Of a stretch of 64,000 nt of DNA, positions 3,789 to 23,691 are shown in pieces. How positions within the stretch are numbered: position 1 is the first letter of the stretch; every line of letters begins with the position of its first letter. This DNA is from an uncultured Verrucomicrobiota bacterium (GTDB taxonomy: Bacteria; Verrucomicrobiota; Verrucomicrobiia; Limisphaerales; CAIMTB01), in contig CALNYA010000069.1 of NCBI GenBank assembly GCA_942490575.1, forward strand, positions 53,901 to 117,900, in the 5' to 3' direction. The notes below the pieces were generated by a model. It was not told the origin of the DNA. It worked only from the letters and a program-made list of their open reading frames with translations, and made no database searches. The position numbers were made by a program, and so were the translations under genes.

Positions 3789-5047
3789 GGCATCGTCACC
3801 CTCAAAGGTACCGGCTTTGTCTTCTCAACGCTGGTGTACCAGGGCATCAGCAGGAAATAGCCGAAGTAGATGGCAGTACAGACCTGCGCAAGCAGTGTCC
3901 TTCCTGGTGTCGGATGCTGAACACCCAGGTAACCCAGGATAAAAAACGCCACAATGAACACAGCGAGGAACAACTTGCTGCCTAATCCTTTGTATCTGAT
4001 GGACTTAACCGGTGACTTGTCGAGCCATGGCAGAACTGCCGGCAGGACAATCGCACCAGCCATGACGACCAGCCCCCAGAATTTTGCATCAAGGCCAAAC
4101 AGCGGAAACGTTGCGGCTCGAAGCATCGAGTAGAAAGGTGTGTAGTACCAGACAGGTGCGATGAGATCCGGTGTCTTCAGGGGGTCAGCCGGTTCATAGT
4201 TCGGATGCTCAATCAGGTAGCCGCCACCATCAGGGAAATAGAACATGACGACACAAAAGAAGAACAGGAACGCAACAATCGCCGGCAAATCATGACCAAT
4301 AGTGTAATGGGGATGAAACGGGATGCCATCGAGAGGCTTGCCGTCTTCGTCGACAGTCTTTTTGATATCAACGCCATCCGGGTTGTTTGAGCCCACCTCA
4401 TGCAACGCCAGGATATGCAGGAAGACAAGTACAATCAGCACCAACGGAATCAGTACAACGTGCAGGGCAAAAAAGCGGTTCAGGGTTATTACGGAAATAT
4501 TGAAGTCACCACGAACCCAGGTCGCAAGCGCGTCACCAACGATAGGAATGGCACCGGCGAGAGAAACAATGACCTGGCCGGCCCACAAAGACATGTTGCC
4601 CCAGGGCAGCAGGTAACCGAAGAATCCATCCGCCATCAGTGCCACGTAAATCAGCATACCCAGAATCCAGATGAGCTCCCTTGGCTTCTGGTAAGAGCCA
4701 TAGGCAAGCCCGCGGAACATATGCAGGTAAACCACAAGGAAGAACGCCGATGCACCTGTGGAGTGCATATACCGAAGCATCCAGCCGTACTCGACGTCCC
4801 GCATGATGTATTCAACCGAGGCAAAGGCACCATCAGCCGTTGGTACGTAGCTCATCGTCAGCCAGATACCGGTCAGTAACTGATTGACCAGCACCACGAC
4901 CGACAGGACGCCAAAAAAGTACCAGAAATTGAAATTTTTTGGCGCGTAGTACTTGGAAAGATGTTTCTCGTAGGTTTCCGTAACCGGAAGCCTGGCATCC
5001 ATCCAATCCATAAAATTTTTGAATGACTGTTGTAACGCTGACATCAA
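3785..5047 (-). CDS. petB: Cytochrome b of ubiquinol-cytochrome c reductase
   Basis: A 420 aa polytopic membrane protein (…[14 protein letters not shown]…, …MSLWAGQVI…, …LPWLDKSPV…), sitting between the Rieske and c1 genes. Confidence 0.95.
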
Positions 5048-5643
5048 GCAGTCCCCTCGTCTTCTCCGATAATAATCACAGAGTCGCTTTCATAAGCATG
5101 TGGTGGCACTTCCAGATTTGACGGCGCAGGTACACCTGTGTAGACACGGCCAGCAAGATCAAACTTTGAACCATGACAGGGGCAGAAAAAGCCACCTATC
5201 CATTCAGGATCAAACTCCTCGGGTTCGATAACAGGGCGGAATTTTGGAGAGCAGGAGAGGTGTGTGCACAATCCAACCAGAACAAGAATCTCCGGCTTGT
5301 TCGATCGTGTTTCGTTTTTCGCGTAGTCGGGCTGTTGTGGCCTTTCTGATGCAGGGTCGGCCAGTCGCTCGTTTCTGGAGTTCAACCGGTCGAGCATTTC
5401 CTCGGAGCGCCTGATCACAAACACAGGTTTGTCACGCCAGGCTGGTATTGGCCCGAGCATTTCGCCAGGGGACAATTTACTGATATCTATCTTGATTGGC
5501 GCGCCTGCTGCCAACGCCTTGGCGCTCGGATTCCAGGAGCCGACAAAGGGTACGGCAACTCCCACTACTCCAGCAGCTCCAACTACAGACGTCGCACCTA
5601 TCAGGAAGTTGCGGCGCCCTGTGTTGACGCTATTCTCACTCAC
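5044..5643 (-). CDS. petA: Rieske iron-sulfur subunit of the bc1 complex
   Basis: It has a Tat-like N-terminus (RRNFLIGAT) and the Rieske 2Fe-2S boxes CTHLSCSP and CPCHGSKF. Confidence 0.95.
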
Positions 5644-5838
5644 TATGAAATCTCCTTACTATTACAACATCCAACCCCGGGTATCCCGGCCAGAAATAAC
5701 CGCGAATTCAGGGTGAGTAAGGCCCCAAAATTGGCCGAGCGGAGTTTACCACATTCCATCGAGAAAATGTTGGCGAGCCAGCGTAATATCTGGAGTTTTT
5801 CCAATTCGGGGAAGTTGAGATCCTGGCGGTAAAACCGG

Positions 5839-6225
5839 TTACCGCTTGGAAAACTGGGGCTTTTTCCGTGCCTTGCGCAGACCGACCTTTTTACGTTCCA
5901 CGGTTCTCGCATCACGGGTTACAAAACCGGCGCTTCGAAGCGCCGGGCGCAGGGTTTCATCATATTCAATCAAAGCGCGAGTGATACCGTGGCGAATCGC
6001 GCCCGCCTGGCCGAAACCGCCGCCGCCGCAGACGGTCACGTTAAAGTCAAATTTGCCATTGACGTCAGCGACTTCCAATGGCTGACGGACGATCATTCGC
6101 GCGGTTTCACGCCCGAAATATTCATCAAGAGTACGGTCATTTACCCGGATACTGCCATCACCTGCCGTCATAAAGACGCGTGCCTTGGCTGATTTTCTTC
6201 TTCCGGTTCCGTAATACTGGGTCAT
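5839..6225 (-). CDS. rpsI: 30S ribosomal protein S9
   Basis: 128 aa with [17 protein letters not shown]...[18 protein letters not shown]...[17 protein letters not shown]. Confidence 0.97.
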
Positions 6226-6271
6226 TTGCTGTTACCTGAGCGCTTGTGTGGGCTTGTGTGGGTCTGGTCGA

Positions 6272-6700
6272 TTAGATATCGAGGGGTTTGGGTTGCTGGG
6301 CTGAATGTGGATGTTCACTACCAGCGTATACCTTGAGCTTCGCCAGCATCGACTGACTGAGCTTGTTCTTCGGCATCATGCCTTTCACGGCTTTCTCAAT
6401 GATCTGTTCAGGGGACTTCTGAATCAGCTTATCGAAGCTGATGGACTTGATACCGCCTGGATAGCCTGTGTGATGGTAATACATCTTGTCGGTAGTCTTG
6501 TTGCCTGTAACAACGACCTTTTCAGCATTAACAACAACAATATAGTCACCGGTATCCACGTGTGGCGTGAACTCCGGCTTGTGCTTACCGCGCAGTCGAA
6601 TGGCGATTTCCGTGCTCAGGCGACCCAGGGTCTTGTCTGTAGCATCCACAACATACCAACTGTGTGTGGCGGTTTCTTTCTTGGCGCTAACTGTCTTCAT
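6272..6700 (-). CDS. rplM: 50S ribosomal protein L13
   Basis: 142 aa with [61 protein letters not shown]... Confidence 0.97.
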
Positions 6701-6928: not shown

Positions 6929-8023
6929 TCAGGGCTTGTGCTCCCTGGCGAGATACTCCTTGGACTGCATTTCCTGCAGCCGGCTTTCAGTCCTCTGGAA
7001 TTCAAAGGTAAGCCGATTGCCGTGATACAGGTCCAGGATGTGGGTTTCGGCTGAAATGATCAATTTCACGTTCCTGTCATAGAACTCGTCTACCAGGCTG
7101 ATGAATCGCCGCGCCTGGTCTTCCTTTTTCTCATCCATCCGGGGGACATTACCAACCAGCACAGTCTGGAAGAGTTTTGCCAGTTCAATGTAGTCGTTCT
7201 GGCTGCGCGGGCCGTCACACAGGGCAGAAAAATCAAACCAGGCTACACCATCCCCACAGCGTCGGGTGGCGATATTCCGCCCCTCGATAGGCAGAATGAT
7301 ATCAGGCTTGCCCTCATCAGGTGAAAGGCTGCGAAACGCTGAGACAAGCCCGCTTTCCGCGGTGTCATCAAGGGGAAAGTGATAGATTTCGGCAGACTCA
7401 AGCGCCCGCAGGCGATAATCGACCCCACCGTCCAGATTATGAACACGGGTGTAGGTGTTTAACAGCTCAATGGCAGGGAGGAACTTGCGGCGCTGGAGCC
7501 CGTTTTCATACAAGTGATCCGGCGCTACATTCGACGTCGCAACGAGGGTGACACCCAATCGAAACAGTTCATCCAGCAATCCCGCCAGCAACATGGCATC
7601 GGTAATGTCACTGACAAAAAACTCATCGAAACAGATCACCTTCGCCTCTGCTGCGAAACTGGCGGCTACCTTCCTTAGGGGATTGGGTTCTCCCTGGAGA
7701 TCCCTCAACTGCCGATGGACTTCACGCATGAACCGATGAAAGTGCAGGCGTTTCTTCTGAGTCGTCTCAAGTTCCTCATAGAACAAATCCATGAGGAACG
7801 TTTTCCCTCTGCCGACACCTCCCCAGAAGTAGAGTCCTTTGATGGTCCGGGTCTGTGCTGAACGACCAAACAGCGCGAAAATACCCGCGGGAGGTGCAGC
7901 CGGGACGACGGAGAGCTCGCGATGTAGTTCCTGCAGCATCTGCAATGCCTCCAGCTGGGCAGCATCTTCGTGGTAGTCGCCTCGAGTGACTTCCTGTCGA
8001 TAGCGCGCTAGAGGTCCCGACAT
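6929..8023 (-). CDS. zapE: AFG1-family ATPase / cell division factor ZapE
   Basis: 364 aa with a Walker A motif GGVGRGKTFLMD and a Walker B-like ICFDEFFVSD. It sits upstream of rplM-rpsI, as in many Gammaproteobacteria. Confidence 0.85.
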   Translation of the reverse strand: MSGPLARYRQEVTRGDYHEDAAQLEALQMLQELHRELSVVPAAPPAGIFALFGRSAQTRTIKGLYFWGGVGRGKTFLMDLFYEELETTQKKRLHFHRFMREVHRQLRDLQGEPNPLRKVAASFAAEAKVICFDEFFVSDITDAMLLAGLLDELFRLGVTLVATSNVAPDHLYENGLQRRKFLPAIELLNTYTRVHNLDGGVDYRLRALESAEIYHFPLDDTAESGLVSAFRSLSPDEGKPDIILPIEGRNIATRRCGDGVAWFDFSALCDGPRSQNDYIELAKLFQTVLVGNVPRMDEKKEDQARRFISLVDEFYDRNVKLIISAETHILDLYHGNRLTFEFQRTESRLQEMQSKEYLAREHKP

Positions 8024-9344: not shown

Positions 9345-9967
9345 GTGGCCAGTTCCAGCGCATCAATGATTGACTTGATGGGTTCATACTTGGTCTTGAA
9401 GGACGATTCGTTGACGATAAGTCGGGTGCTGATATTGGTAATCAGTTCCATCGCTACAAGCCCGTTGGCTTTGAGCGTATTGCCCGTCTCAACGATGTCA
9501 ACAATCCGGTGCGCCAGCCCCGTAACAGGTGCCAGTTCCATTGCGCCGTAGAGTTTAATAATGTCTACCTGGATACCCCTGGCGGCATAATAGCGTTTGG
9601 CAGTATTGGTAATCTTGGTCGCTATTCTCAGCCGGGATGGCAAAGGTGGTTCGTCCTTTAGACCCGCCACCATAATGCGACACTGACCAAGGCCCAGATC
9701 AAGCGGTTCATAGAATCCGGTGCCCGTATGCTCAAGCAGCACATCTTTGCCCGACATACCGAGGTCTGCAATGCCATGTTCAACGTAGGTAGCCACATCC
9801 ATGCCACGCAGCACCATAATTTGCACGTCGGCGCGATTTGTTTCAAACACGAGCTTGCGTGAGGTCTGCGGGTCATCCCTGGGCTCAATGCCTATCCGAG
9901 CGAGAAGCGCGAGCTCATCGGCCAGAACTCGACCTTTAGTCAGGGCAAATACCAGGTTCCGTGACAT
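9341..9967 (-). CDS. hisG: ATP phosphoribosyltransferase, short form
   Basis: 208 aa with LVFALTKGRVLAD..., ...DLGMSGKDVLLE..., ...VDIVETGNTLKANGL... It overlaps hisD by 4 nt. Confidence 0.93.
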   Translation of the reverse strand: MSRNLVFALTKGRVLADELALLARIGIEPRDDPQTSRKLVFETNRADVQIMVLRGMDVATYVEHGIADLGMSGKDVLLEHTGTGFYEPLDLGLGQCRIMVAGLKDEPPLPSRLRIATKITNTAKRYYAARGIQVDIIKLYGAMELAPVTGLAHRIVDIVETGNTLKANGLVAMELITNISTRLIVNESSFKTKYEPIKSIIDALELAT

Positions 9968-9970
9968 TGA

Positions 9971-11245
<1,275 letters not shown>

Positions 11246-11503
11246 CTACCGGTTTGCCTCATCATAGGTCTGCGTGACCATGGTCACGGCATGAATCTCG
11301 CCGGTCTTGATCCGATCGTCGAGCAACGCATAAATCTTCTGCTGACGCTTGACCCTGTTCAGGCCAGCGAAGGCATCGGATACAATTTTGACGCTAAGTT
11401 TGTTGCCTTCTGCTGCGAGTTCGAGCTCACATTGCGGCAAACTTTCACGCAATTGCGCTTCTATGGCGGATACATCCATTGGCAGAACTCGATTGGGTGA
11501 CAA
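11246..11503 (-). CDS. ibaG: BolA-family protein (IbaG/YrbA type)
   Basis: 85 aa with ...VKIVSDAFAGLNRVKRQQKIYALL...GEIHAVTMVT. It lies between mlaB and murA, as in the enterobacterial mla-ibaG-murA arrangement. Confidence 0.75.
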   Translation of the reverse strand: MSPNRVLPMDVSAIEAQLRESLPQCELELAAEGNKLSVKIVSDAFAGLNRVKRQQKIYALLDDRIKTGEIHAVTMVTQTYDEANR

Positions 11504-11832: not shown

Positions 11833-12196
11833 CTACTGACCAGTTCTCGATGACCTTATCGATGTTCTTCTTATATTTTTGCATGTAGGCGTTGAATTGA
11901 GACCTGAATTGCAACCCGATATTAATGCCGTTGATAATGACATTCCGTAGCATCCACCGCCCGTCAATCAGTTCCAACTGGTACTGTACCGGATAGATCG
12001 TGCCTGATTTAGTATGAATTTCCAGGTCAATGGTAGCCCTGTCATCCGTTTGTTCCGGCGTTGATGGAGGGACCACAACAACCTTCTCATTGTCAAACTC
12101 CACCAGTGCACTTGCATAGGTACGAACCAGCGCATTCTGGAAAGTCGTGACAAATTTTGCCTTCTGGACATCGGTGGCATCCCGGTAGTGCTTGGG
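11813..12196 (-). CDS. mlaC: MlaC-like periplasmic phospholipid-binding protein, N-terminally truncated at the poly-G joint
   Basis: The frame reads ...KHYRDATDVQKAKFVTTFQNALVRTYASALVEFDNEKVVVVPP...DGRWMLRNVIINGINIGLQFRSQF... It aligns by eye with the E. coli MlaC segment [30 protein letters not shown] onward. Roughly the first 85-90 residues are absent. Confidence 0.7.
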   Translation of the reverse strand, partial: PKHYRDATDVQKAKFVTTFQNALVRTYASALVEFDNEKVVVVPPSTPEQTDDRATIDLEIHTKSGTIYPVQYQLELIDGRWMLRNVIINGINIGLQFRSQFNAYMQKYKKNIDKVIENWSVDVDNQA

Positions 12197-16002: not shown

Positions 16003-16472
16003 CACGGACACCGCGCGCCCAGGCGCGGAGTTTGGACTGCGAGACCAGCGCGGAATCGAGGGCGCCTGGGAAGGCGACCGGGACCCGGAATCGGGAGCTC
16101 CGAGGAACTCCGTGAAGACGACCGGCCGACAAGCCGGTGCCACTGGCCTCATCCTTCTCTTGGGCGGAGAAGTGTCCCAACCGACCGAACGGATGGAGTT
16201 GGGACGGACGAGCATGGATGGACCGGTCTCCTGACTCCGGGCTGCGAACCTCGCCCCCGCCTTCCCAGCGTCGCCGCTAGTGGCTTGTGGGGGTCTGTCA
16301 CCCGATACAGTGGCGCTACCGTCCCCGATTCCCACGGGGTTCCCGAGCATCTATCCATGTGGACCGGGGAAAGCCCCGGGACTTCAAAGAACGCGGTCTA
16401 CGGGTAGCGGGTCGCGCCGGGTACGCGCAAGCCATTTCCCGGAAACGCCGGATCGATCGACGGGCGGATTCC

Positions 16473-17811: not shown

Positions 17812-20052
17812 ATGACGTCCGTCCCGGCGACCGGATCCCTGCCGACGGCCCCGCGAGAGCTTCTCGTGGTGCTGACCGGCAATCCCAACTGCGGCAAGAC
17901 GACCCTGTTCAACGCCCTGACCGGGCTGCGGGCCAAGGTGGGCAATTACGCGGGCGTCACCGTCGAGCGGAAGGAAGGCCGCCTCCGGGGCACGCCGCCG
18001 CACCTGAAGATCACCCTTCTGGACCTGCCAGGATCCTACAGCCTGAGTCCCCAATCGCCCGACGAGGCGGTGGCCCGCGACGTGCTTCTCAGGCGTTCGC
18101 CCGAAGTCGGCGCGCCGTCGGTGGTCGTCATCCTGGTGGATGCCTCGAACCTCGAACGGAACCTCTATTTCGCCACCCAGGTGATCGAGTTGGGATACCC
18201 GACGGTCATCGGGCTCAACATGGTCGATGTCGCGACCGAAAACGGGACGGACGTGGATTCCGAAAGTTTGGCCGATGAGTTGGGAGTTCCCGTGGTGCCG
18301 CTGGTGGCGAGCCGCGGGGAGGGATTGGAAAAGCTGCGGGCCGAGGTCCTCCGATTGGCGTTGCACCCGCGGGAGACGACGGTTCCCGCGCCCCGCCGGT
18401 TCGTGGAGGTTCCGACGGCCATGGAACGGGAATGGACGGACCTGACGGGCCGCCGCTTGGGACCGATCGAACCGGGAATGCCCTCGCCCCGTTTGGAGGC
18501 GTTGCTGCTTCTGACCGACGACAAGGCCCTGAACGGACTGACGGCCCACTGGCCCGCCGACACCGCGGGTTGGGTGGCCTCGGCCCGGGGGCGCCTGGCG
18601 ACGGCGGACGTGGACTGGACGAGCGCGGCGATCGAGGGGCGCTACGCGAGGGTGTCGGCGATCCAGGAGGCGGTGGCGACGGCCCCTTCGATGGTGGGCG
18701 AGACCCTGAGCGACCGGCTGGACCGAGTGGTCACGCACAGGATCTGGGGGCCCGTGATCTTCGTTGGTCTGATGTTCCTCATATTCCAGACCATGTTCAC
18801 GTTGGCGGAATGGCCGATGGGCTGGATCGAAAGCGGTGTCGGATGGCTGGCCGACGCCGTTCAGGGAGCGATGCCCGAGGGGGATCTGCGGGATCTGCTG
18901 ACGGACGGTGTCGTCGCGGGCGTGGGCGCGGTGATCGTGTTCCTGCCGCAGATCCTGCTGCTGTTCCTGTTTCTGGCGTTGCTGGAGGACACCGGCTACA
19001 TGGCGCGCGCGGCGTTTCTCATGGATCGGCTGATGAGCAAGGTGGGCCTGCACGGGAAAAGTTTCATCCCGCTGCTGGGGTCCTTCGCGTGCGCCATTCC
19101 GGGAATCATGGCGACCCGGACGATCGAGACGCCCAAGGACCGGTTGGTGACGATCCTCGTGGCGCCTCTGATGAGCTGTTCGGCGCGTCTGCCCGTCTAC
19201 ACGGTGCTGATCGCGGCCTGCATCCCGAACGTGGTCTTCCTGGGGTTCCTGAAGCTCTCGGCGCTCACGATGCTGAGCATGTACCTCCTGGGGATCGTGG
19301 TGGCGCTGGGAATGGCCTGGATCTTCAAGCGGACACTCCTCAAGGGACACGCGCCACTCCTGATCATGGAACTGCCGCCGTACAAGCGCCCGGGCGTGCG
19401 GGTGGTGCTGCGCCACATGCTGGACCGGTCGATGCTCTTCCTCCGTCGGGCCGGCACGGTGATCCTGGTGATCAACATGGTGCTGTGGGTCCTGGCGACC
19501 TACCCGCGCAGCGGGGAGCGGGAGGCGGCGTTCGCGGAACAACTACGGACCGTCGCGGCGGAAGGCGGCCCGACGGCTGACGAACGGGTGGCGGCGCTCG
19601 AACGGGAGCATGCCGGGGAGCGGTTGCGGCATAGCTTCGCGGGCGTCCTCGGACGCGCGATGGAGCCGTGGATCGCCCCGCTGGGATTCGACTGGAAGAT
19701 CGGCATCGGGCTGGTGGCGTCCTTCGCGGCCCGGGAGGTTTTCGTCAGCACGATGTCGACCGTCTACAACGTCGGGGAGTTCGACGAGTCGGAGGAGGGG
19801 ACCCGCGGATTGGCGGCGGTGTTGCAATCCCAGCGACGGGAGGATGGGAGCCTGTTGTACACGCCCCTGACCGGCGTGACCCTGATGGTGTTCTACGTCT
19901 TCGCGTTGCAGTGCGTGAGCACGATCGCGGTGGTGCGGCGCGAGACCAACGCCTGGAAGTGGCCGCTGTTCCAACTGGCTTACATGACCGGGCTGGCATG
20001 GATCCTGGCGTTCGTGACCTACCAGGGCGGACGGTGGCTCGGGTTTTCGTGA
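17812..20052 (+). CDS. feoB: Ferrous iron transporter FeoB
   Basis: 746 aa with an N-terminal G domain (LTGNPNCGKTTLFNALTG, DLPGSYSL) and a polytopic membrane domain. Confidence 0.95.
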   Translation: MTSVPATGSLPTAPRELLVVLTGNPNCGKTTLFNALTGLRAKVGNYAGVTVERKEGRLRGTPPHLKITLLDLPGSYSLSPQSPDEAVARDVLLRRSPEVGAPSVVVILVDASNLERNLYFATQVIELGYPTVIGLNMVDVATENGTDVDSESLADELGVPVVPLVASRGEGLEKLRAEVLRLALHPRETTVPAPRRFVEVPTAMEREWTDLTGRRLGPIEPGMPSPRLEALLLLTDDKALNGLTAHWPADTAGWVASARGRLATADVDWTSAAIEGRYARVSAIQEAVATAPSMVGETLSDRLDRVVTHRIWGPVIFVGLMFLIFQTMFTLAEWPMGWIESGVGWLADAVQGAMPEGDLRDLLTDGVVAGVGAVIVFLPQILLLFLFLALLEDTGYMARAAFLMDRLMSKVGLHGKSFIPLLGSFACAIPGIMATRTIETPKDRLVTILVAPLMSCSARLPVYTVLIAACIPNVVFLGFLKLSALTMLSMYLLGIVVALGMAWIFKRTLLKGHAPLLIMELPPYKRPGVRVVLRHMLDRSMLFLRRAGTVILVINMVLWVLATYPRSGEREAAFAEQLRTVAAEGGPTADERVAALEREHAGERLRHSFAGVLGRAMEPWIAPLGFDWKIGIGLVASFAAREVFVSTMSTVYNVGEFDESEEGTRGLAAVLQSQRREDGSLLYTPLTGVTLMVFYVFALQCVSTIAVVRRETNAWKWPLFQLAYMTGLAWILAFVTYQGGRWLGFS

Positions 20053-20065
20053 CGTGACGACGCGG

Positions 20066-20174
20066 AAAGGGGTCGGTCAATGGTATTGGAGTATTTCGCG
20101 GTAGGGCATCGGCGGAAATCTGCCTGCCCAACCCGATATGCCAATACGCCGATACCATTGACCGACCCCTTTGC
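20066..20174. repeat. MITE-like / REP-like hairpin element, copy 1
   Basis: Sequence aaaggggtcggtcaatggtattggagtatttcgcggtagggca...tgcccaacccgatatgccaatacgccgataccattgaccgacccctttg. The termini are inverted repeats (GGGGTCGGTCAATGGTATTG / CAATACCATTGACCGACCCC). A second copy lies at 22929-23027 in the same orientation. Confidence 0.8.
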
Positions 20175-20193
20175 GGCGACCCCTTTGCGGCCC

Positions 20194-20285
20194 CCAACTG
20201 GCTTACATGACCGGGTTGGCATGGATCCTGGCGTTCGTGACCTTCCAGGGCCTACCAGGGCGGCCTTTGGCTGGGTTTCAGCTGA
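20194..20285 (+). repeat. Degenerate second copy of the last ~80 nt of feoB
   Basis: ccaactggcttacatgaccgggTtggcatggatcctggcgttcgtgacc... matches 19971-20052 with a few substitutions and an internal ~10-nt insertion (ttccagggcc). Without the insertion it reads TYQGGLWLGFS-stop, against TYQGGRWLGFS-stop in feoB. Confidence 0.85.
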
Positions 20286-20298
20286 CCTCGGCGCCCGA

Positions 20299-22920
20299 TC
20301 AGCGGCCCTGCCGCGCGAGTTCGGGCGGCGTCGACTGGAGCGCGCGAACGAAGAAATCCCCGCGAAGGCGCCGGCCGTAGTCGGATTCGATCGCGCCGTG
20401 ACCCGCCCCCGGGAATGGCAGGAACTCGAACGGCTTCCCGGCTTTGATCAGGGCGTTGACCACTTGAAAGGTGCTGGACGGATCGACGTTTCGGTCCAGT
20501 TCGCCAACGGTGAGCAGGAGTTTTCCCCGAAGCTTGTGGGCCTGGGTGACATTGGACTGCTCCGCGTAGTGCGGTCCGACCGGCCATCCCATCCACGCCT
20601 CGTTCCACCAGATCTTGTCCATGCGGTTGTCGTGGCACCCGCAGTCCGCGACGGCGGCCTGGTAGAAGTCCCCGTGGGCGAGCAGCGCGCGCAGGGCGTT
20701 TTGGCCGCCCGCCGAGCCTCCGTAGATCCCCACGCGTGAGAGATCGAGTTCGGGAAACCGAGCCGCCGCCGCCCTGAGCCAAGCGATCCGGTCTGGGAAG
20801 CCGGCGTCGCCGAGATTGCGCGATGCGACATCATGGAATCGCTTGCTCCGCCAGTTGGTTCCCATGCCGTCGATCTGCGCGACGACAAACCCTCGGTCGG
20901 CGAGCTCCTCCTGGCGTCCGTAGGTCGCGCGGAAGGACTTGGGCACGTGCTGGCCGTGGGGGCCCGCGTAAATGTGCTCGATGACGGGGTACCGGCCGGC
21001 GGGATCGAATCCTCGGGGCCGGTGCAGGATACCCCAGATGTCGGTTGTTCCGTCGCGGCCTTTGGCGACGAAGCGTTCCGGAAGGCGCCCGCGTTCGGCG
21101 ACGACCTCCGACGCGTCGGCGGTTTCCAGGAGGCACACCCGGTTGCCCGTCGCCGCGTTTCGCAACTCCGAGATCGGCGGCAGGTCCACGCGGGACCAGG
21201 TATCGATGAAGAACTCGCGGTCGGGGGACCACTCGATTTCATGGGTGCCATCGCCTTCGGTGAGCGCCACGAAGCCGCCGCCGTCGAGGTTCACCCGGGC
21301 GAGATGAACGTGGTACGGATCCTGGTTCGGCCAGATTCCGGACACGCGAATCCAAACATGCCTCGCCTTGGCATCGAGTTTGTCGACACCTCGGACCACC
21401 CAATCTCCCCGGGTGATGGGATTCCTGATCGCGCCTGAGCGGGCATCGACGAGGTGGAGGTGGTTCCATCCGCTTCGCTCGGACATCCAGACCAGCTCGC
21501 GGTCGGCGTCGAGGAATTCGAGGAACGTCTTGTTCGAATAGTCGATGAAGGTCGCGGACTTCTCCTCGACGAGGCTTGTCACCTCGCCCGTGGTTCCGTC
21601 GACGGCCAGCAGTCGGAGGACCTGATGTCCGCGCTGGTTGTGGAGGAACGTGAAACGCCCCGGGTTGTCGGGCGACCAGCGGAATTGTCCAAGGGACCAA
21701 GGATTCGGGAACAGATCCGTTTGGATGGGGATCTCGCGGGGTTCCGCTCCGTCGACGACGAAGAGGCGCGGGTTGGGAACGGGCAGTTCATCCCCCGCCT
21801 TGAGGTACGGGTACGATGAGGCCTTCGGCTGAAGCTGATCGGAGGGCGACGACTCGATGAGCTGGACGTGGCGTTCCGGGATGGTGCGAGTCTGAAGCGC
21901 CACGACCCGGATGGAATCCGGTGACCAGTGGGCGTCGGGCAGCGTGGGAGGCGCCTCGGCGGCGTCGTAATCCATGCCCACGAGGCGCGCCCTCTGGGAG
22001 TCCTTGTGGAAGGTATGACCCGGACTGCCGTCGTACGACAGTTGGGTTTCGGCGGCGGTCTTGATGTCGCGCACCCAGAGATTGTGATCTCGGACGAACA
22101 GGGCGCGGGCGCCGTCGGGGGATCGGACATCGCGTTGGAATTGGGTGGCGTCCGCCTGCCGGCGGCGTTGGCGTTGGCGCGGTTCAGGCTCGCGATCCTC
22201 GATGATGGCGCGGCCTGATGCGCGAGTGGCTTCGAAAACCCGCTGTCGGGAAGCATCCAACTCAGCGGCCCAGACGTGGCCGGCAAAGGTGTGCTGGCGG
22301 CGGGTCGAGCCCGCCTTGAGGGTTCCGTACGGCTGCCGATTGCCCTCGGCATCGATCCAGTAGAGGCGCACCTCCGCGCCGGACCGGTTGTCGAAAAGGA
22401 TGCTGGTCTCGGGTCCGTTGCCACGCGACGGACGGACCTCGGGTTCGGCGGGAAGCGAGTCGGCTTCGGACGGTTCCGCGGCTTCGAGTTCGTAGCTTGC
22501 GAGATTGAGGCGCCAGCTGCCGTCGGGGCCCGAGAGGGTGACGACGGCGAGGTCTTCCGAGAACTCCAGGCGATCGACGGGAAGACGGTCCTGGGAGATC
22601 TCACGATCGAGCCGGATCGAAAGGGCCGCGGCCGCGCGGACGTGGTCGAAGGCGGATTGGCGGGAGCCGTTCCGGGTATCGATCAGGATGAACTCGAGGG
22701 TTTCGGCGGGGAGGCTGTTGCGGTACCAAAACATCGAGTTCGTCGCGAACCAGTTGGGTTCGATCTTGTCGCCATAGACCCGTGGCGCGGCTGAAAGGGC
22801 CGACAAGGATATCAACCCGACGAAGGCGGCCCAGGGGATGATCTGGAGGAGCCGGCGGCTCGGGGGGATGGGTGGGCGCATACGGGGAGCGTGCTCGAAA
22901 GCCGTGCCGGGGGGAAGCAC
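20299..22920 (-). CDS. S9-family serine peptidase (dipeptidyl-peptidase IV-like beta-propeller plus alpha/beta hydrolase)
   Basis: 873 aa with a catalytic Ser in IYGGSAGGQNAL, a later Asp (GELDRNVD) and His (GAGHG). A long N-terminal propeller-like region is present. The likely start is MRPPIPPSRRLLQIIPWAAFVGLISLSALSA (22881). Confidence 0.9.
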   Translation of the reverse strand: MLPPGTAFEHAPRMRPPIPPSRRLLQIIPWAAFVGLISLSALSAAPRVYGDKIEPNWFATNSMFWYRNSLPAETLEFILIDTRNGSRQSAFDHVRAAAALSIRLDREISQDRLPVDRLEFSEDLAVVTLSGPDGSWRLNLASYELEAAEPSEADSLPAEPEVRPSRGNGPETSILFDNRSGAEVRLYWIDAEGNRQPYGTLKAGSTRRQHTFAGHVWAAELDASRQRVFEATRASGRAIIEDREPEPRQRQRRRQADATQFQRDVRSPDGARALFVRDHNLWVRDIKTAAETQLSYDGSPGHTFHKDSQRARLVGMDYDAAEAPPTLPDAHWSPDSIRVVALQTRTIPERHVQLIESSPSDQLQPKASSYPYLKAGDELPVPNPRLFVVDGAEPREIPIQTDLFPNPWSLGQFRWSPDNPGRFTFLHNQRGHQVLRLLAVDGTTGEVTSLVEEKSATFIDYSNKTFLEFLDADRELVWMSERSGWNHLHLVDARSGAIRNPITRGDWVVRGVDKLDAKARHVWIRVSGIWPNQDPYHVHLARVNLDGGGFVALTEGDGTHEIEWSPDREFFIDTWSRVDLPPISELRNAATGNRVCLLETADASEVVAERGRLPERFVAKGRDGTTDIWGILHRPRGFDPAGRYPVIEHIYAGPHGQHVPKSFRATYGRQEELADRGFVVAQIDGMGTNWRSKRFHDVASRNLGDAGFPDRIAWLRAAAARFPELDLSRVGIYGGSAGGQNALRALLAHGDFYQAAVADCGCHDNRMDKIWWNEAWMGWPVGPHYAEQSNVTQAHKLRGKLLLTVGELDRNVDPSSTFQVVNALIKAGKPFEFLPFPGAGHGAIESDYGRRLRGDFFVRALQSTPPELARQGR

Positions 22921-22928
22921 CCGGGGGT

Positions 22929-23027
22929 TAGGGGTCAGTCAATGGTATTGGAGTATTTGGCGGTAGGGCATCGGCGAGAATCCGCGTGCCCAACCCGATA
23001 CTTCAATACCATTGACCGACCCCTTTG
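22929..23027. repeat. MITE-like / REP-like hairpin element, copy 2
   Basis: Sequence taggggtcagtcaatggtattggagtatttggcggtagggcatcggcgagaatccgcgtgcccaacccgatacttcaataccattgaccgacccctttg. The arms of about 38-41 nt are mutually complementary and surround a roughly 16-nt loop. Confidence 0.8.
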
Positions 23028-23084
23028 CCGCAATCACCGGAATGGGGCTTCGCCCGTGTTGGGGAAGAGGCTAGGATCGTTGTC

Positions 23085-23333
23085 ATGGAACGGGTGGTCA
23101 GGCGATTTGGGTCCCACGCGGAAGCGGAAGCGGCGGATGCGGAATACTACAGGAACTTGACCCCCGAGGAGCGGCTTGACCTGTTGCTCCAGATGGTTAG
23201 TCGGGAGACCTCGAATGAACCTGAGCAAAGACTTGAGCGAGTTTATCGGATTGCTCCGCTCCACGGGGGTGAACTACCTGATCGTCGGGGGGCACGCGGT
23301 GGCGTTTCATGGTCACCCGAGGTTCACCGGTGA
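23085..23333 (+). CDS. Small hypothetical protein, possible partner of the downstream nucleotidyltransferase-fold protein
   Basis: The inner start of ORF 23025..23333 reads MERVVRRFGSHAEAEAADAEYYRNLTPEERLDLLLQMV... Its 3' end overlaps the next gene by more than 100 nt, so the true stop or frame is uncertain. Confidence 0.4.
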   Translation: MERVVRRFGSHAEAEAADAEYYRNLTPEERLDLLLQMVSRETSNEPEQRLERVYRIAPLHGGELPDRRGARGGVSWSPEVHR

Positions 23334-23691
23334 CATTGATTTTTTCGTCGAGCGTACCGAGGCCAATGCCGCCAAGCTGGAGGCAGTCCTTCGGGATTTC
23401 GGATTTGGCGGGCTTGGTCTGAAGGCGTCGGATTTTCTGGAGCCTTCGGTCGTCATTCAGCTGGGGCGCCCGCCCGGGAGGATTGACCTGCTGACATCGA
23501 TCGACGGGGTGGAGTTCGGGGCCGCCTGGGCGAGCCGTGTCTCGACTGAGATGGGAGGGCTACCTGTTTGGGTCATCGGGAAGGAGCACCTGATTCTCAA
23601 CAAACGAGCCACGGGCCGGGCCCAGGATCTGGCGGACCTTGAGAAGATCGAGGGCGTCGGGCCGACCGGGTTCAAGCCAGGAGTTCCTTGA
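23215..23691 (+). CDS. Nucleotidyltransferase-fold protein of unknown function
   Basis: MNLSKDLSEFIGLLRSTGVNYLIVGGHAVAFHGHPRFTGDIDFFVERTE... The GG...G...T-GDID pattern resembles a minimal nucleotidyltransferase, and the C-terminus reads KRATGRAQDLADLEKI. Confidence 0.5.
   Translation: MNLSKDLSEFIGLLRSTGVNYLIVGGHAVAFHGHPRFTGDIDFFVERTEANAAKLEAVLRDFGFGGLGLKASDFLEPSVVIQLGRPPGRIDLLTSIDGVEFGAAWASRVSTEMGGLPVWVIGKEHLILNKRATGRAQDLADLEKIEGVGPTGFKPGVP

Follow-up and report, generated by a model that had tools for sequence, protein, structure and literature searches.

Two intergenic hairpins of an uncultured Limisphaerales bacterium are probably mobile dimers of a Y1 transposase terminal inverted repeat

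The 64-kb stretch of DNA analyzed here (hereafter the window, numbered from its first base) comes from an uncultured Verrucomicrobiota bacterium of the order Limisphaerales and carries two copies of a hairpin about 100 nt long, one on either side of a gene encoding an S9 peptidase. These hairpins are probably non-autonomous members of a family of terminal inverted repeats (TIRs) that belong to Y1 (HUH, RAYT-like) transposases, in the form of TIR dimers of the TIRtron/TIRYT class; RAYT denotes the tyrosine transposases associated with repetitive extragenic palindromes (REPs). The arms of the hairpins match the TIRs of Y1 transposase units in other Verrucomicrobiota, and syntenic relatives lack both hairpins.

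Two hairpins with a shared terminal repeat

The original prediction, made from the sequence of the window, described two hairpin elements in the same orientation, and a motif search together with direct alignment of the copies confirmed both. Their ends were set by counting the conserved AAA/TTT outside GGGG...CCCC into the repeat. The two copies and their parts are as follows:

20066..20172 (+): hairpin copy 1 (AAAGGGG...CCCCTTT), two inward-facing TIR motifs, starting 14 nt past the feoB stop codon
20066..20088 (+): left arm of copy 1, TIR motif AAAGGGGTCGGTCAATGGTATTG (motif search; consensus of 31 TIR instances)
20140..20155 (+): 8-nt tandem duplication GCCAATAC GCCGATAC inside copy 1, a bulge in the fold
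20150..20172 (-): right arm of copy 1, TIR motif with one mismatch (ATCG replaces ATTG)
20163..20190 (+): 14-nt tandem duplication, cgacccctttgcgg twice (also written CGACCCCTTTGCGG twice), comprising the last 10 nt of copy 1 and 4 nt of flank
22928..23026 (+): hairpin copy 2 (TTAGGGG...CCCCTTT), TIR dimer in the divergent intergenic region
22928..22950 (+): left arm of copy 2, TIR motif (motif search)
23004..23026 (-): right arm of copy 2, TIR motif (motif search)

The arm 20-mer GGGGTCRGTCAATGGTATTG occurs at four sites in the window when up to three mismatches are allowed (20069+, 20169-, 22931+, and 23023-), with 0.00 sites expected from shuffled sequences, and the two copies are 89% identical over 80 nt. 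The inverted repeats at the ends had been called perfect over about 20 nt; the repeats are there, but 19 of 20 positions are complementary in each copy. Extended arms, previously put at about 40 nt, are likewise present and align over 33 nt at 91% in copy 1 and over 27 nt at 93% in copy 2, with the folds pairing about 45 positions per copy. Both copies form long hairpins with a stability far above that of shuffled sequence, as RNA (-79.9 kcal/mol, z -8.4, for copy 1; -65.6 kcal/mol, z -8.6, for copy 2) and as single-stranded DNA (-44.7 kcal/mol, z -11.9, and -32.7 kcal/mol, z -7.7, respectively). Differences between the copies, in the alignment and in the folds, are one-sided and not compensatory. 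The layout of the dimers is that of head-to-head terminal repeats of about 21-23 nt around a palindromic interior of about 25 nt, without coding capacity. The window holds only dimers of this kind, with arms extended to about 45 bp.

Copy 1 occupies the space between feoB and the S9 peptidase gene, whose stops converge (20052 and 20299), and copy 2 that between the divergent starts of the peptidase gene (22881 or 22920) and a small gene (23085); the gene calls agree with the placement originally given for both. Two finer details of copy 1 were also borne out, namely, the 14-nt tandem duplication at its right end and an "extra internal segment," which corresponds to the 8-nt tandem duplication. 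A third tandem duplication, of 10 nt (20243-20262), brings to three those found within about 120 nt in or beside copy 1 (the other two at 20140-20155 and 20163-20190), a cluster that suggests slippage-prone replication at the hairpin.

The arm motif in other Verrucomicrobiota

A scan of one genome per species with a loose 15-mer returned 120 loci, mostly chance matches, which were afterwards sorted with the 20-mer. The full 20-mer was present in 12 of these 120 loci, 11 of them in metagenome-assembled genomes (MAGs) of Verrucomicrobiota (labeled Pedosphaera, Akkermansia, Verrucomicrobiales, and similar) and one in a Chloroflexia MAG, the latter being a chance match within a coding sequence. 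Three further Verrucomicrobiota loci (L006, L077, and L096) contain the motif with one or two mismatches. Altogether, the 20-23-nt arm AAAGGGGTC(A/G)GTCAATGGTATTG recurs in at least 14 Verrucomicrobiota MAG loci. The 20-mer was not found in a scan of viral contigs. The consensus of 31 collected instances, (A)AAGGGGTCAGTCAATGGTATTG, is 84-100% conserved at almost every core position (77% at the R position, A or G) and is followed by a weakly conserved T-rich stretch. Across genomes, conservation is confined to this DNA repeat of about 21 nt and does not include the interior of the hairpins.

The motif was found as single copies (L006, L027, L049, and L084), as inward-facing dimers (the two in the window, a 60-nt hairpin in L107, and L077), as an outward-facing pair (L065), as a tandem pair (L113), and as a group of seven copies within 21 kb (L132). 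The outward-facing pair of L065 (1557-1603) consists of two TIR motifs tail to tail with a 7-nt spacer, the layout that joined right and left ends, or a circle junction, would be expected to have. The seven copies of L132 (9889-20585, on a 2.8-Mb contig) are of a variant with TCTTG in the middle of the repeat. Two of them lie 10-12 nt upstream of paralogous gene pairs, each comprising a 94-aa gene and a TPR gene (starts at 11983 and 16148), so that here the repeat also belongs to a larger duplicated module. L096 contains two nearly identical motif-bearing segments of about 150 nt in the same orientation, 1.1 kb apart (6260-6420 and 7400-7560).

Y1 transposase units bounded by the motif

In four independent intact loci, the motif is the terminal inverted repeat of a unit of about 1.05 kb that encodes a Y1 HUH transposase. 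The units other than L101 were gathered by a protein search with the product of the L101 gene, after which the contigs of the homologs were inspected; the inverted-TIR architecture was present on every homolog contig examined. The intact units are as follows:

L101: motif at 2556 (-), 31 nt upstream of a gene whose product starts MGRKIRLEYPGAIYHVMNRGD; inverted copy (CAATACC-TTGACTGACACC) at about 1530, 6 nt past the stop codon of that gene
L135/136: left TIR at 4966, gene 5018-5977, right TIR at 6005
L137: left TIR at 551, gene 602-1588, right TIR at 1591
L138-140: left TIR at 9951, gene 10001-10972, right TIR at 10979; solo copy at 11432

In L018, the motif lies upstream of two transposase pseudogene copies. 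A sister subfamily, with TCTTG in place of CAATG in the middle of the repeat, has the same architecture (L132 and L133/134).

The transposases are about 310-330 aa long, including a C-terminal extension. The protein matches the Pfam family Y1_Tnp with 49.2 bits (cut-off 23); its match to the NCBIfam model for REP-associated tyrosine transposases has an E-value of 8.6e-12, under the cut-off of that model. The HUH (N-H-F-H) and D-Y-V-H-L-N-P motifs are invariant among 27 homologs. The best Protein Data Bank (PDB) match of the structure model (pLDDT 80) is 4ER8, the Escherichia coli TnpA-REP bound to an REP hairpin (TM score 0.68, target normalized), followed by the TnpA proteins of ISDra2 and IS608. 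PDB searches with the transposase as a single sequence and as a profile returned nothing useful, so the link to TnpA-REP comes from the comparison of folds. The family is very large, with at least 7963 protein clusters at E <= 1e-20 among the 8000 scored and about 64-85% identity among the matches listed. Many of the homologs, if not most, are on contigs of 1-2 kb, and their JGI name is often RayT.

The TIR next to the transposase start (L101 2541-2555 and the left ends of L135, L137, and L138) reads GTCAATGGTATTGAC, which forms a perfect 6-bp stem with a 3-nt loop, contains TTGACA, and is a plausible recognition hairpin. Its 3' half is lost in solo copies and in the arms of the window hairpins, where the counterpart of TTGACA is degraded to TTGGAG, TTGAAG, or TCGGCG. 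The folding energy of a single motif is a mere -0.8 to -0.9 kcal/mol, and the motif lacks a GTAG/CGTC tag.

The position of some copies raises the question of whether the 21-nt motif serves mainly in regulation, as a site bound by a protein or as a promoter element, so that each hairpin would be two such sites back to back. In L049, L065, L101, L113, and L132, several single copies precede start codons by 20-70 nt in the sense orientation, the version next to the transposases contains TTGACA, and copy 2 is located within a divergent promoter region. However, at least six copies, copy 1 among them, lie 11-43 nt past a stop codon, between convergent or tandem genes; a consensus scan called no sigma-70-like promoter at either hairpin, where TTGACA is degraded; and the inverted pairing around Y1 genes has the look of transposon ends. 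We consider a regulatory site an unlikely explanation. In particular, a promoter as the primary role of the motif is ruled out by the copies just past the stops of convergent genes and by the inverted pairs around Y1 genes.

Empty sites in syntenic relatives

The FeoB protein encoded in the window shares 88% identity with its counterpart in a Limisphaerales MAG (P0002) and 83% with the one in a second lineage (P0003); synteny between the window and the contigs of both extends beyond 10 kb. In the syntenic relatives L127 (the closest, with a FeoB 88% identical), L128-131, and L142, feoB and the peptidase gene are convergent as in the window. Their stops overlap in L128-131 and are 6 nt apart in L142 and 66 nt apart in L127; neither the hairpin nor any copy of the motif is present in any of these loci, and copy 1 is thus missing from all four relatives in which its site is covered. 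For copy 2, L127 aligns with the window on both flanks of a gap of about 117 nt that matches the element and thus represents an empty site, the spacer between the peptidase gene and the small gene being 88 nt in L127 versus 203 nt in the window. Given their absence from syntenic relatives, both hairpins are lineage-specific insertions.

Two side observations concern the same junction. The 66-nt stop-to-stop spacer of L127 (12242-12307) is composed of GGATCG-like repeats that show partial dyad symmetry, another small insert in the place taken by copy 1 in the window. In L141 (GCA_038325245.1, JBBQIU010000054.1), the contig ends one base past the feoB stop codon, an assembly break that could reflect a repeat at this place.

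The same comparison bears on the suggestion that the two copies form a composite unit able to mobilize the peptidase gene jointly. Although two copies in the same orientation do bracket a single gene, this gene is found at the same place, convergent to feoB, in the element-free L127, L128-131, and L142, and nucleotide identity to L127 is alike on the two sides of copy 1 (82.5% and 82.0%). A composite unit is therefore scarcely credible; judging from these alignments, the S9 peptidase gene is ancestral at the locus and not cargo of the repeats. The equal identity of the flanks also rules out a large chimera produced by recombination at copy 1.

At copy 2 (in comparison with L127), in the full units, and at 17 other motif sites, the TIR ends have no direct repeat directly beside them. 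Target-site duplications do not arise in Y1 HUH transposition, so the lack of abutting duplications is the signature expected of it and speaks against a classical miniature inverted-repeat transposable element (MITE), that is, an internally deleted DDE-type insertion sequence (IS) moved by cut-and-paste on double-stranded DNA by a TIR-recognizing DDE transposase. For the same reason, a lack of flanking duplications, which the original prediction would have counted against mobility, carries no such weight here. The TIRs of about 20 nt, the size of about 100 nt, and the lack of coding sequence would all suit a DDE-derived MITE, as would the imperfect CACC(C)GG on both sides of copy 2. These motifs, however, are separated from the TIR ends by 5 and 10 nt instead of abutting them, and the gene between the TIRs is a Y1 HUH gene, and never a DDE gene, in all full-length units sampled. 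Thus, a DDE-type origin is very improbable.

The original prediction also allowed for a structured RNA element, such as a small RNA (sRNA), a stabilizer in the 3' untranslated region, or a terminator, maintained for its RNA fold. REP-like hairpins at 3' ends stabilize mRNA, as the REPs of E. coli do; the hairpins in the window are very stable as RNA, and copy 1 is located at the 3' ends of two convergent genes. Against such a role, an Rfam search of the whole window at gathering thresholds matched only a cobalamin riboswitch and nothing at the hairpins, a relaxed search of 19900-23200 returned nothing overlapping them at E <= 10, and the consensus scan called no intrinsic (U-tract) terminator at either copy. 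In addition, the hairpins are absent from the orthologous sites of close relatives, the differences between the copies are not compensatory, and what is conserved across genomes is a DNA repeat in single, tandem, inward-facing, and outward-facing arrangements. An element kept for its RNA fold is accordingly improbable, and the suggested sRNA family gains no support. The mobile reading of the original prediction, against which an Rfam match would have counted, gains support and a specific content: the arms are TIRs of Y1/TIRYT units, and the copies are missing from relatives.

A repeat of the feoB end around copy 1

The feoB 3' end (its last 82 nt) is present as a direct repeat on the two sides of copy 1, with a 223-nt period, a feature that the earlier description did not contain:

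19971..20052 (+): repeat A, the true end of feoB (last 27 codons plus stop)
20194..20285 (+): repeat A', a further, decayed copy of this gene end

In A', 49 nt that differ from A at one position are followed by a 10-nt tandem duplication (20243-20252), 11 nt identical to A, and a 22-nt tail with nine differences, six of which fall at third codon positions; a TCG/AGC serine switch is among the differences. The tail ends in a TGA of its own, 13 nt from the stop of the peptidase gene, just as the single feoB end adjoins the peptidase stop in the relatives. No duplication of a flanking gene end was found at 17 other motif sites.

The pattern fits an old local duplication in which A remained under selection and A' decayed, with the 5' part homogenized by gene conversion. 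It also fits a small patch derived from a diverged allele that carried the feoB tail together with the hairpin, similar to prophage e14 of E. coli, which brings a replacement gene end at icd. For copy 1 only, and in a manner compatible with the TIR-dimer interpretation, the "feoB tail + hairpin" segment could thus be a remnant of DNA that recombined into the 3' end of feoB with a replacement gene end. The direct repeat itself points in this direction, with about 60 nt nearly identical followed by tails that differ at nine of 22 nt, six of these at third positions, as does the decayed copy that adjoins the peptidase stop in the way the single feoB end of the relatives does. However, neither an integrase nor any other cargo is present, the inserted segment measures only about 165 nt, such a repeat is missing from all 17 other motif sites examined, and an old local duplication with gene conversion accounts for the same pattern. 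We regard a recombination remnant as unlikely.

A related and bolder idea is that the repeat is not accidental and that the TIR dimer was carried into the gene end together with the replacement end. The tail would then have been captured either by transposase read-through that transduced flanking DNA or by recombination of an excised circle containing the tail and the hairpin. This is a long shot; if true, Y1-associated hairpins could take up places between convergent genes that abut tightly and leave these genes functional.

Assignment to the TIRtron/TIRYT class and proposed mechanism

RAYT-like genes flanked by long terminal inverted repeats instead of REPs have been described, the units being named TIRtrons and the proteins TIRYTs (Di Nocera et al. 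2013, PMC3733652). The same study reported a GGGGWSAS motif common to many of these TIRs and TIR repeat families of moderate abundance that occur as singles, dimers, or clusters (groups). In a later classification, TIRYTs constitute subclass 2.1 of the TnpA-Y1 proteins, with a C-terminal helix-turn-helix (HTH) or DnaA-like domain (Quentin et al. 2018, PMC6006769). The sequence GGGGTCAG, present in the left arm of copy 2 and in 24 of the 31 collected instances, fits GGGGWSAS, and on this basis the elements in the window are assigned to the TIR dimers of the TIRtron/TIRYT class. As to the 21-nt TIR itself, a literature search for it as a sequence string did not find it and matched only unrelated STAT3 primers.

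Y1 transposases act on single-stranded DNA and recognize small hairpins. In the mechanism we propose, the dimer would fold back on itself where the DNA is single-stranded, for example, on the lagging-strand template, with its two repeats forming a duplex stem. This stem would be recognized by a TIRYT encoded elsewhere in the genome and supplied in trans, which would cut and rejoin the dimer without target duplication, in the way supposed for RAYTs acting on REPINs. The repeat, the hairpin, the identity of its arms with the TIRs of Y1 units in other Verrucomicrobiota, and the lack of both copies in syntenic relatives are observed here; mobilization in trans, recognition as single-stranded DNA, and a cognate transposase in this genome are the parts of the model that we infer, and the hairpins were probably moved by a transposase encoded outside the window. 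Effects on the neighboring genes would be secondary: copy 1 could serve as a 3'-end hairpin for the two convergent mRNAs (feoB and the peptidase gene), and a possible effect of copy 2 on the divergent promoters would come from the widening of the region between them from 88 to 203 nt.

Several points weigh against the TIR-dimer interpretation. As originally noted, no transposase is present: a search of the six-frame translation of the 64-kb window for the Y1-transposase (RAYT/IS200 N-terminal) motif found none, and a cognate TIRYT in this organism is therefore assumed. Only two copies are seen within the window. No significant similarity was found between the interior of the hairpins and the subterminal regions of the transposase units sampled (z <= 1.4), and none of these units is recognizable as the parent element. 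A metagenome scan with the arm extension specific to the window, GTCAATGGTATTGGAGTAT, yielded no relatives, only six chance matches of low G+C content. Of the four arms in the window, three read GGGGTCGG, one position off the published GGGGWSAS (G for A at motif position 7). Nor does the TIR-dimer model predict the repeat of the feoB tail on the two sides of copy 1. Finally, we know of no experimental demonstration that TIRYTs transpose TIR repeats.

Neighboring genes and other features of the window

The window has a G+C content of 63.9%. The genes next to the hairpins are as follows:

17812-20052 (+): feoB, intact, with a C-terminus identical to that of the closest homolog
20299..22920 (-): S9/DPP-IV-type peptidase gene, probable start ATG at 22881
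23085-23333 (+): small gene, 82 aa, no Pfam match
23176-23691 (+): DUF2204/DUF6036/AbiEii-like nucleotidyltransferase gene, overlapping the small gene

The 82-aa gene and the nucleotidyltransferase gene beside copy 2 are a possible toxin-antitoxin pair; the version of this region in L127 has an internal deletion of about 250 nt. The S9 peptidase (20299-22881) contains an N-terminal match to the VHL beta-domain (PF01847, 37.8 bits), as do its orthologs in L128-131. The cobalamin riboswitch is located at 16204-16369 (-), with 81 bits versus a gathering score of 31.5.

Implications

The present analysis ties a hairpin of an uncultured Limisphaerales-like genome to a defined transposase family and reveals a 21-nt TIR that is almost unchanged across several Verrucomicrobiota lineages, alongside a very large family of Y1 transposases. 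Natural pairs of filled and empty sites are largely lacking in published descriptions of TIRYT repeats; those described here are direct evidence, if only of a comparative kind, that TIR dimers enter as discrete units and do not duplicate the target. For genome annotation, hairpins of this type should not by default be taken for sRNAs or terminators, and they mark spots where short-read assemblies tend to break. The ties of REP- and REPIN-like repeats to HUH transposases are already established, and the advance is incremental; only the filled and empty site pairs and the feoB-tail repeat are worth further attention.

Comparison with known systems

The closest resemblance is to the TIR repeats of the TIRtron/TIRYT systems (PMC3733652; PMC6006769). 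The repeat opens with a GGGGWSAS-type motif (GGGGTCAG), flanks a RAYT-like Y1 gene in inverted orientation at a short, fixed distance (in genomes other than that of the window), occurs as singles, dimers, and groups, and is not accompanied by target duplication. Unlike the described TIRtrons, it is found in Verrucomicrobiota (a Limisphaerales-like host), and its specific 21-nt TIR was not found in the literature by the string search. The window also differs from the described TIRtron TIRs in the G for A at motif position 7 in three of its four arms and in having only dimers, with arms of about 45 bp.

With bacterial MITEs such as RUP, NEMIS/Correia, and ERIC, the hairpins share size, terminal inverted repeats, the lack of coding sequence, and an intergenic location; those MITEs, however, are DDE-derived and produce target-site duplications, neither of which applies here. 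The transposase fold and the HUH and Tyr motifs are shared with IS200/IS605 elements and their palindrome-associated miniature derivatives, and the single-stranded DNA chemistry without target duplication would be common to both. Whereas the ends of IS200/IS605 elements are different subterminal hairpins, ends of the type seen in the window are inverted copies of one sequence.

The remaining comparison is with REPINs and RAYTs, as reportedly described by Bertels and Rainey in 2011, on the account of papers that cite that work. As in REPINs, two inverted short repeats make up an extragenic hairpin of about 100 nt, often between convergent genes and without target duplication, and the repeat is tied to a Y1 HUH protein, for which TnpA-REP (4ER8) is the best structural match. 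Unlike in REPINs, the single repeat is not a GTAG/CGTC-tagged palindrome (-0.8 to -0.9 kcal/mol), and only the variant GTCAATGGTATTGAC forms a 6-bp stem. Moreover, RAYTs are said to be single-copy, domesticated genes, whereas the genes associated with the present repeat look IS-like and multicopy, as indicated by the 1-2-kb contigs and the L018 pseudogenes. By analogy, the TIR dimers of the window may be viewed as a functional counterpart of REPINs rather than as REPINs in the strict sense.

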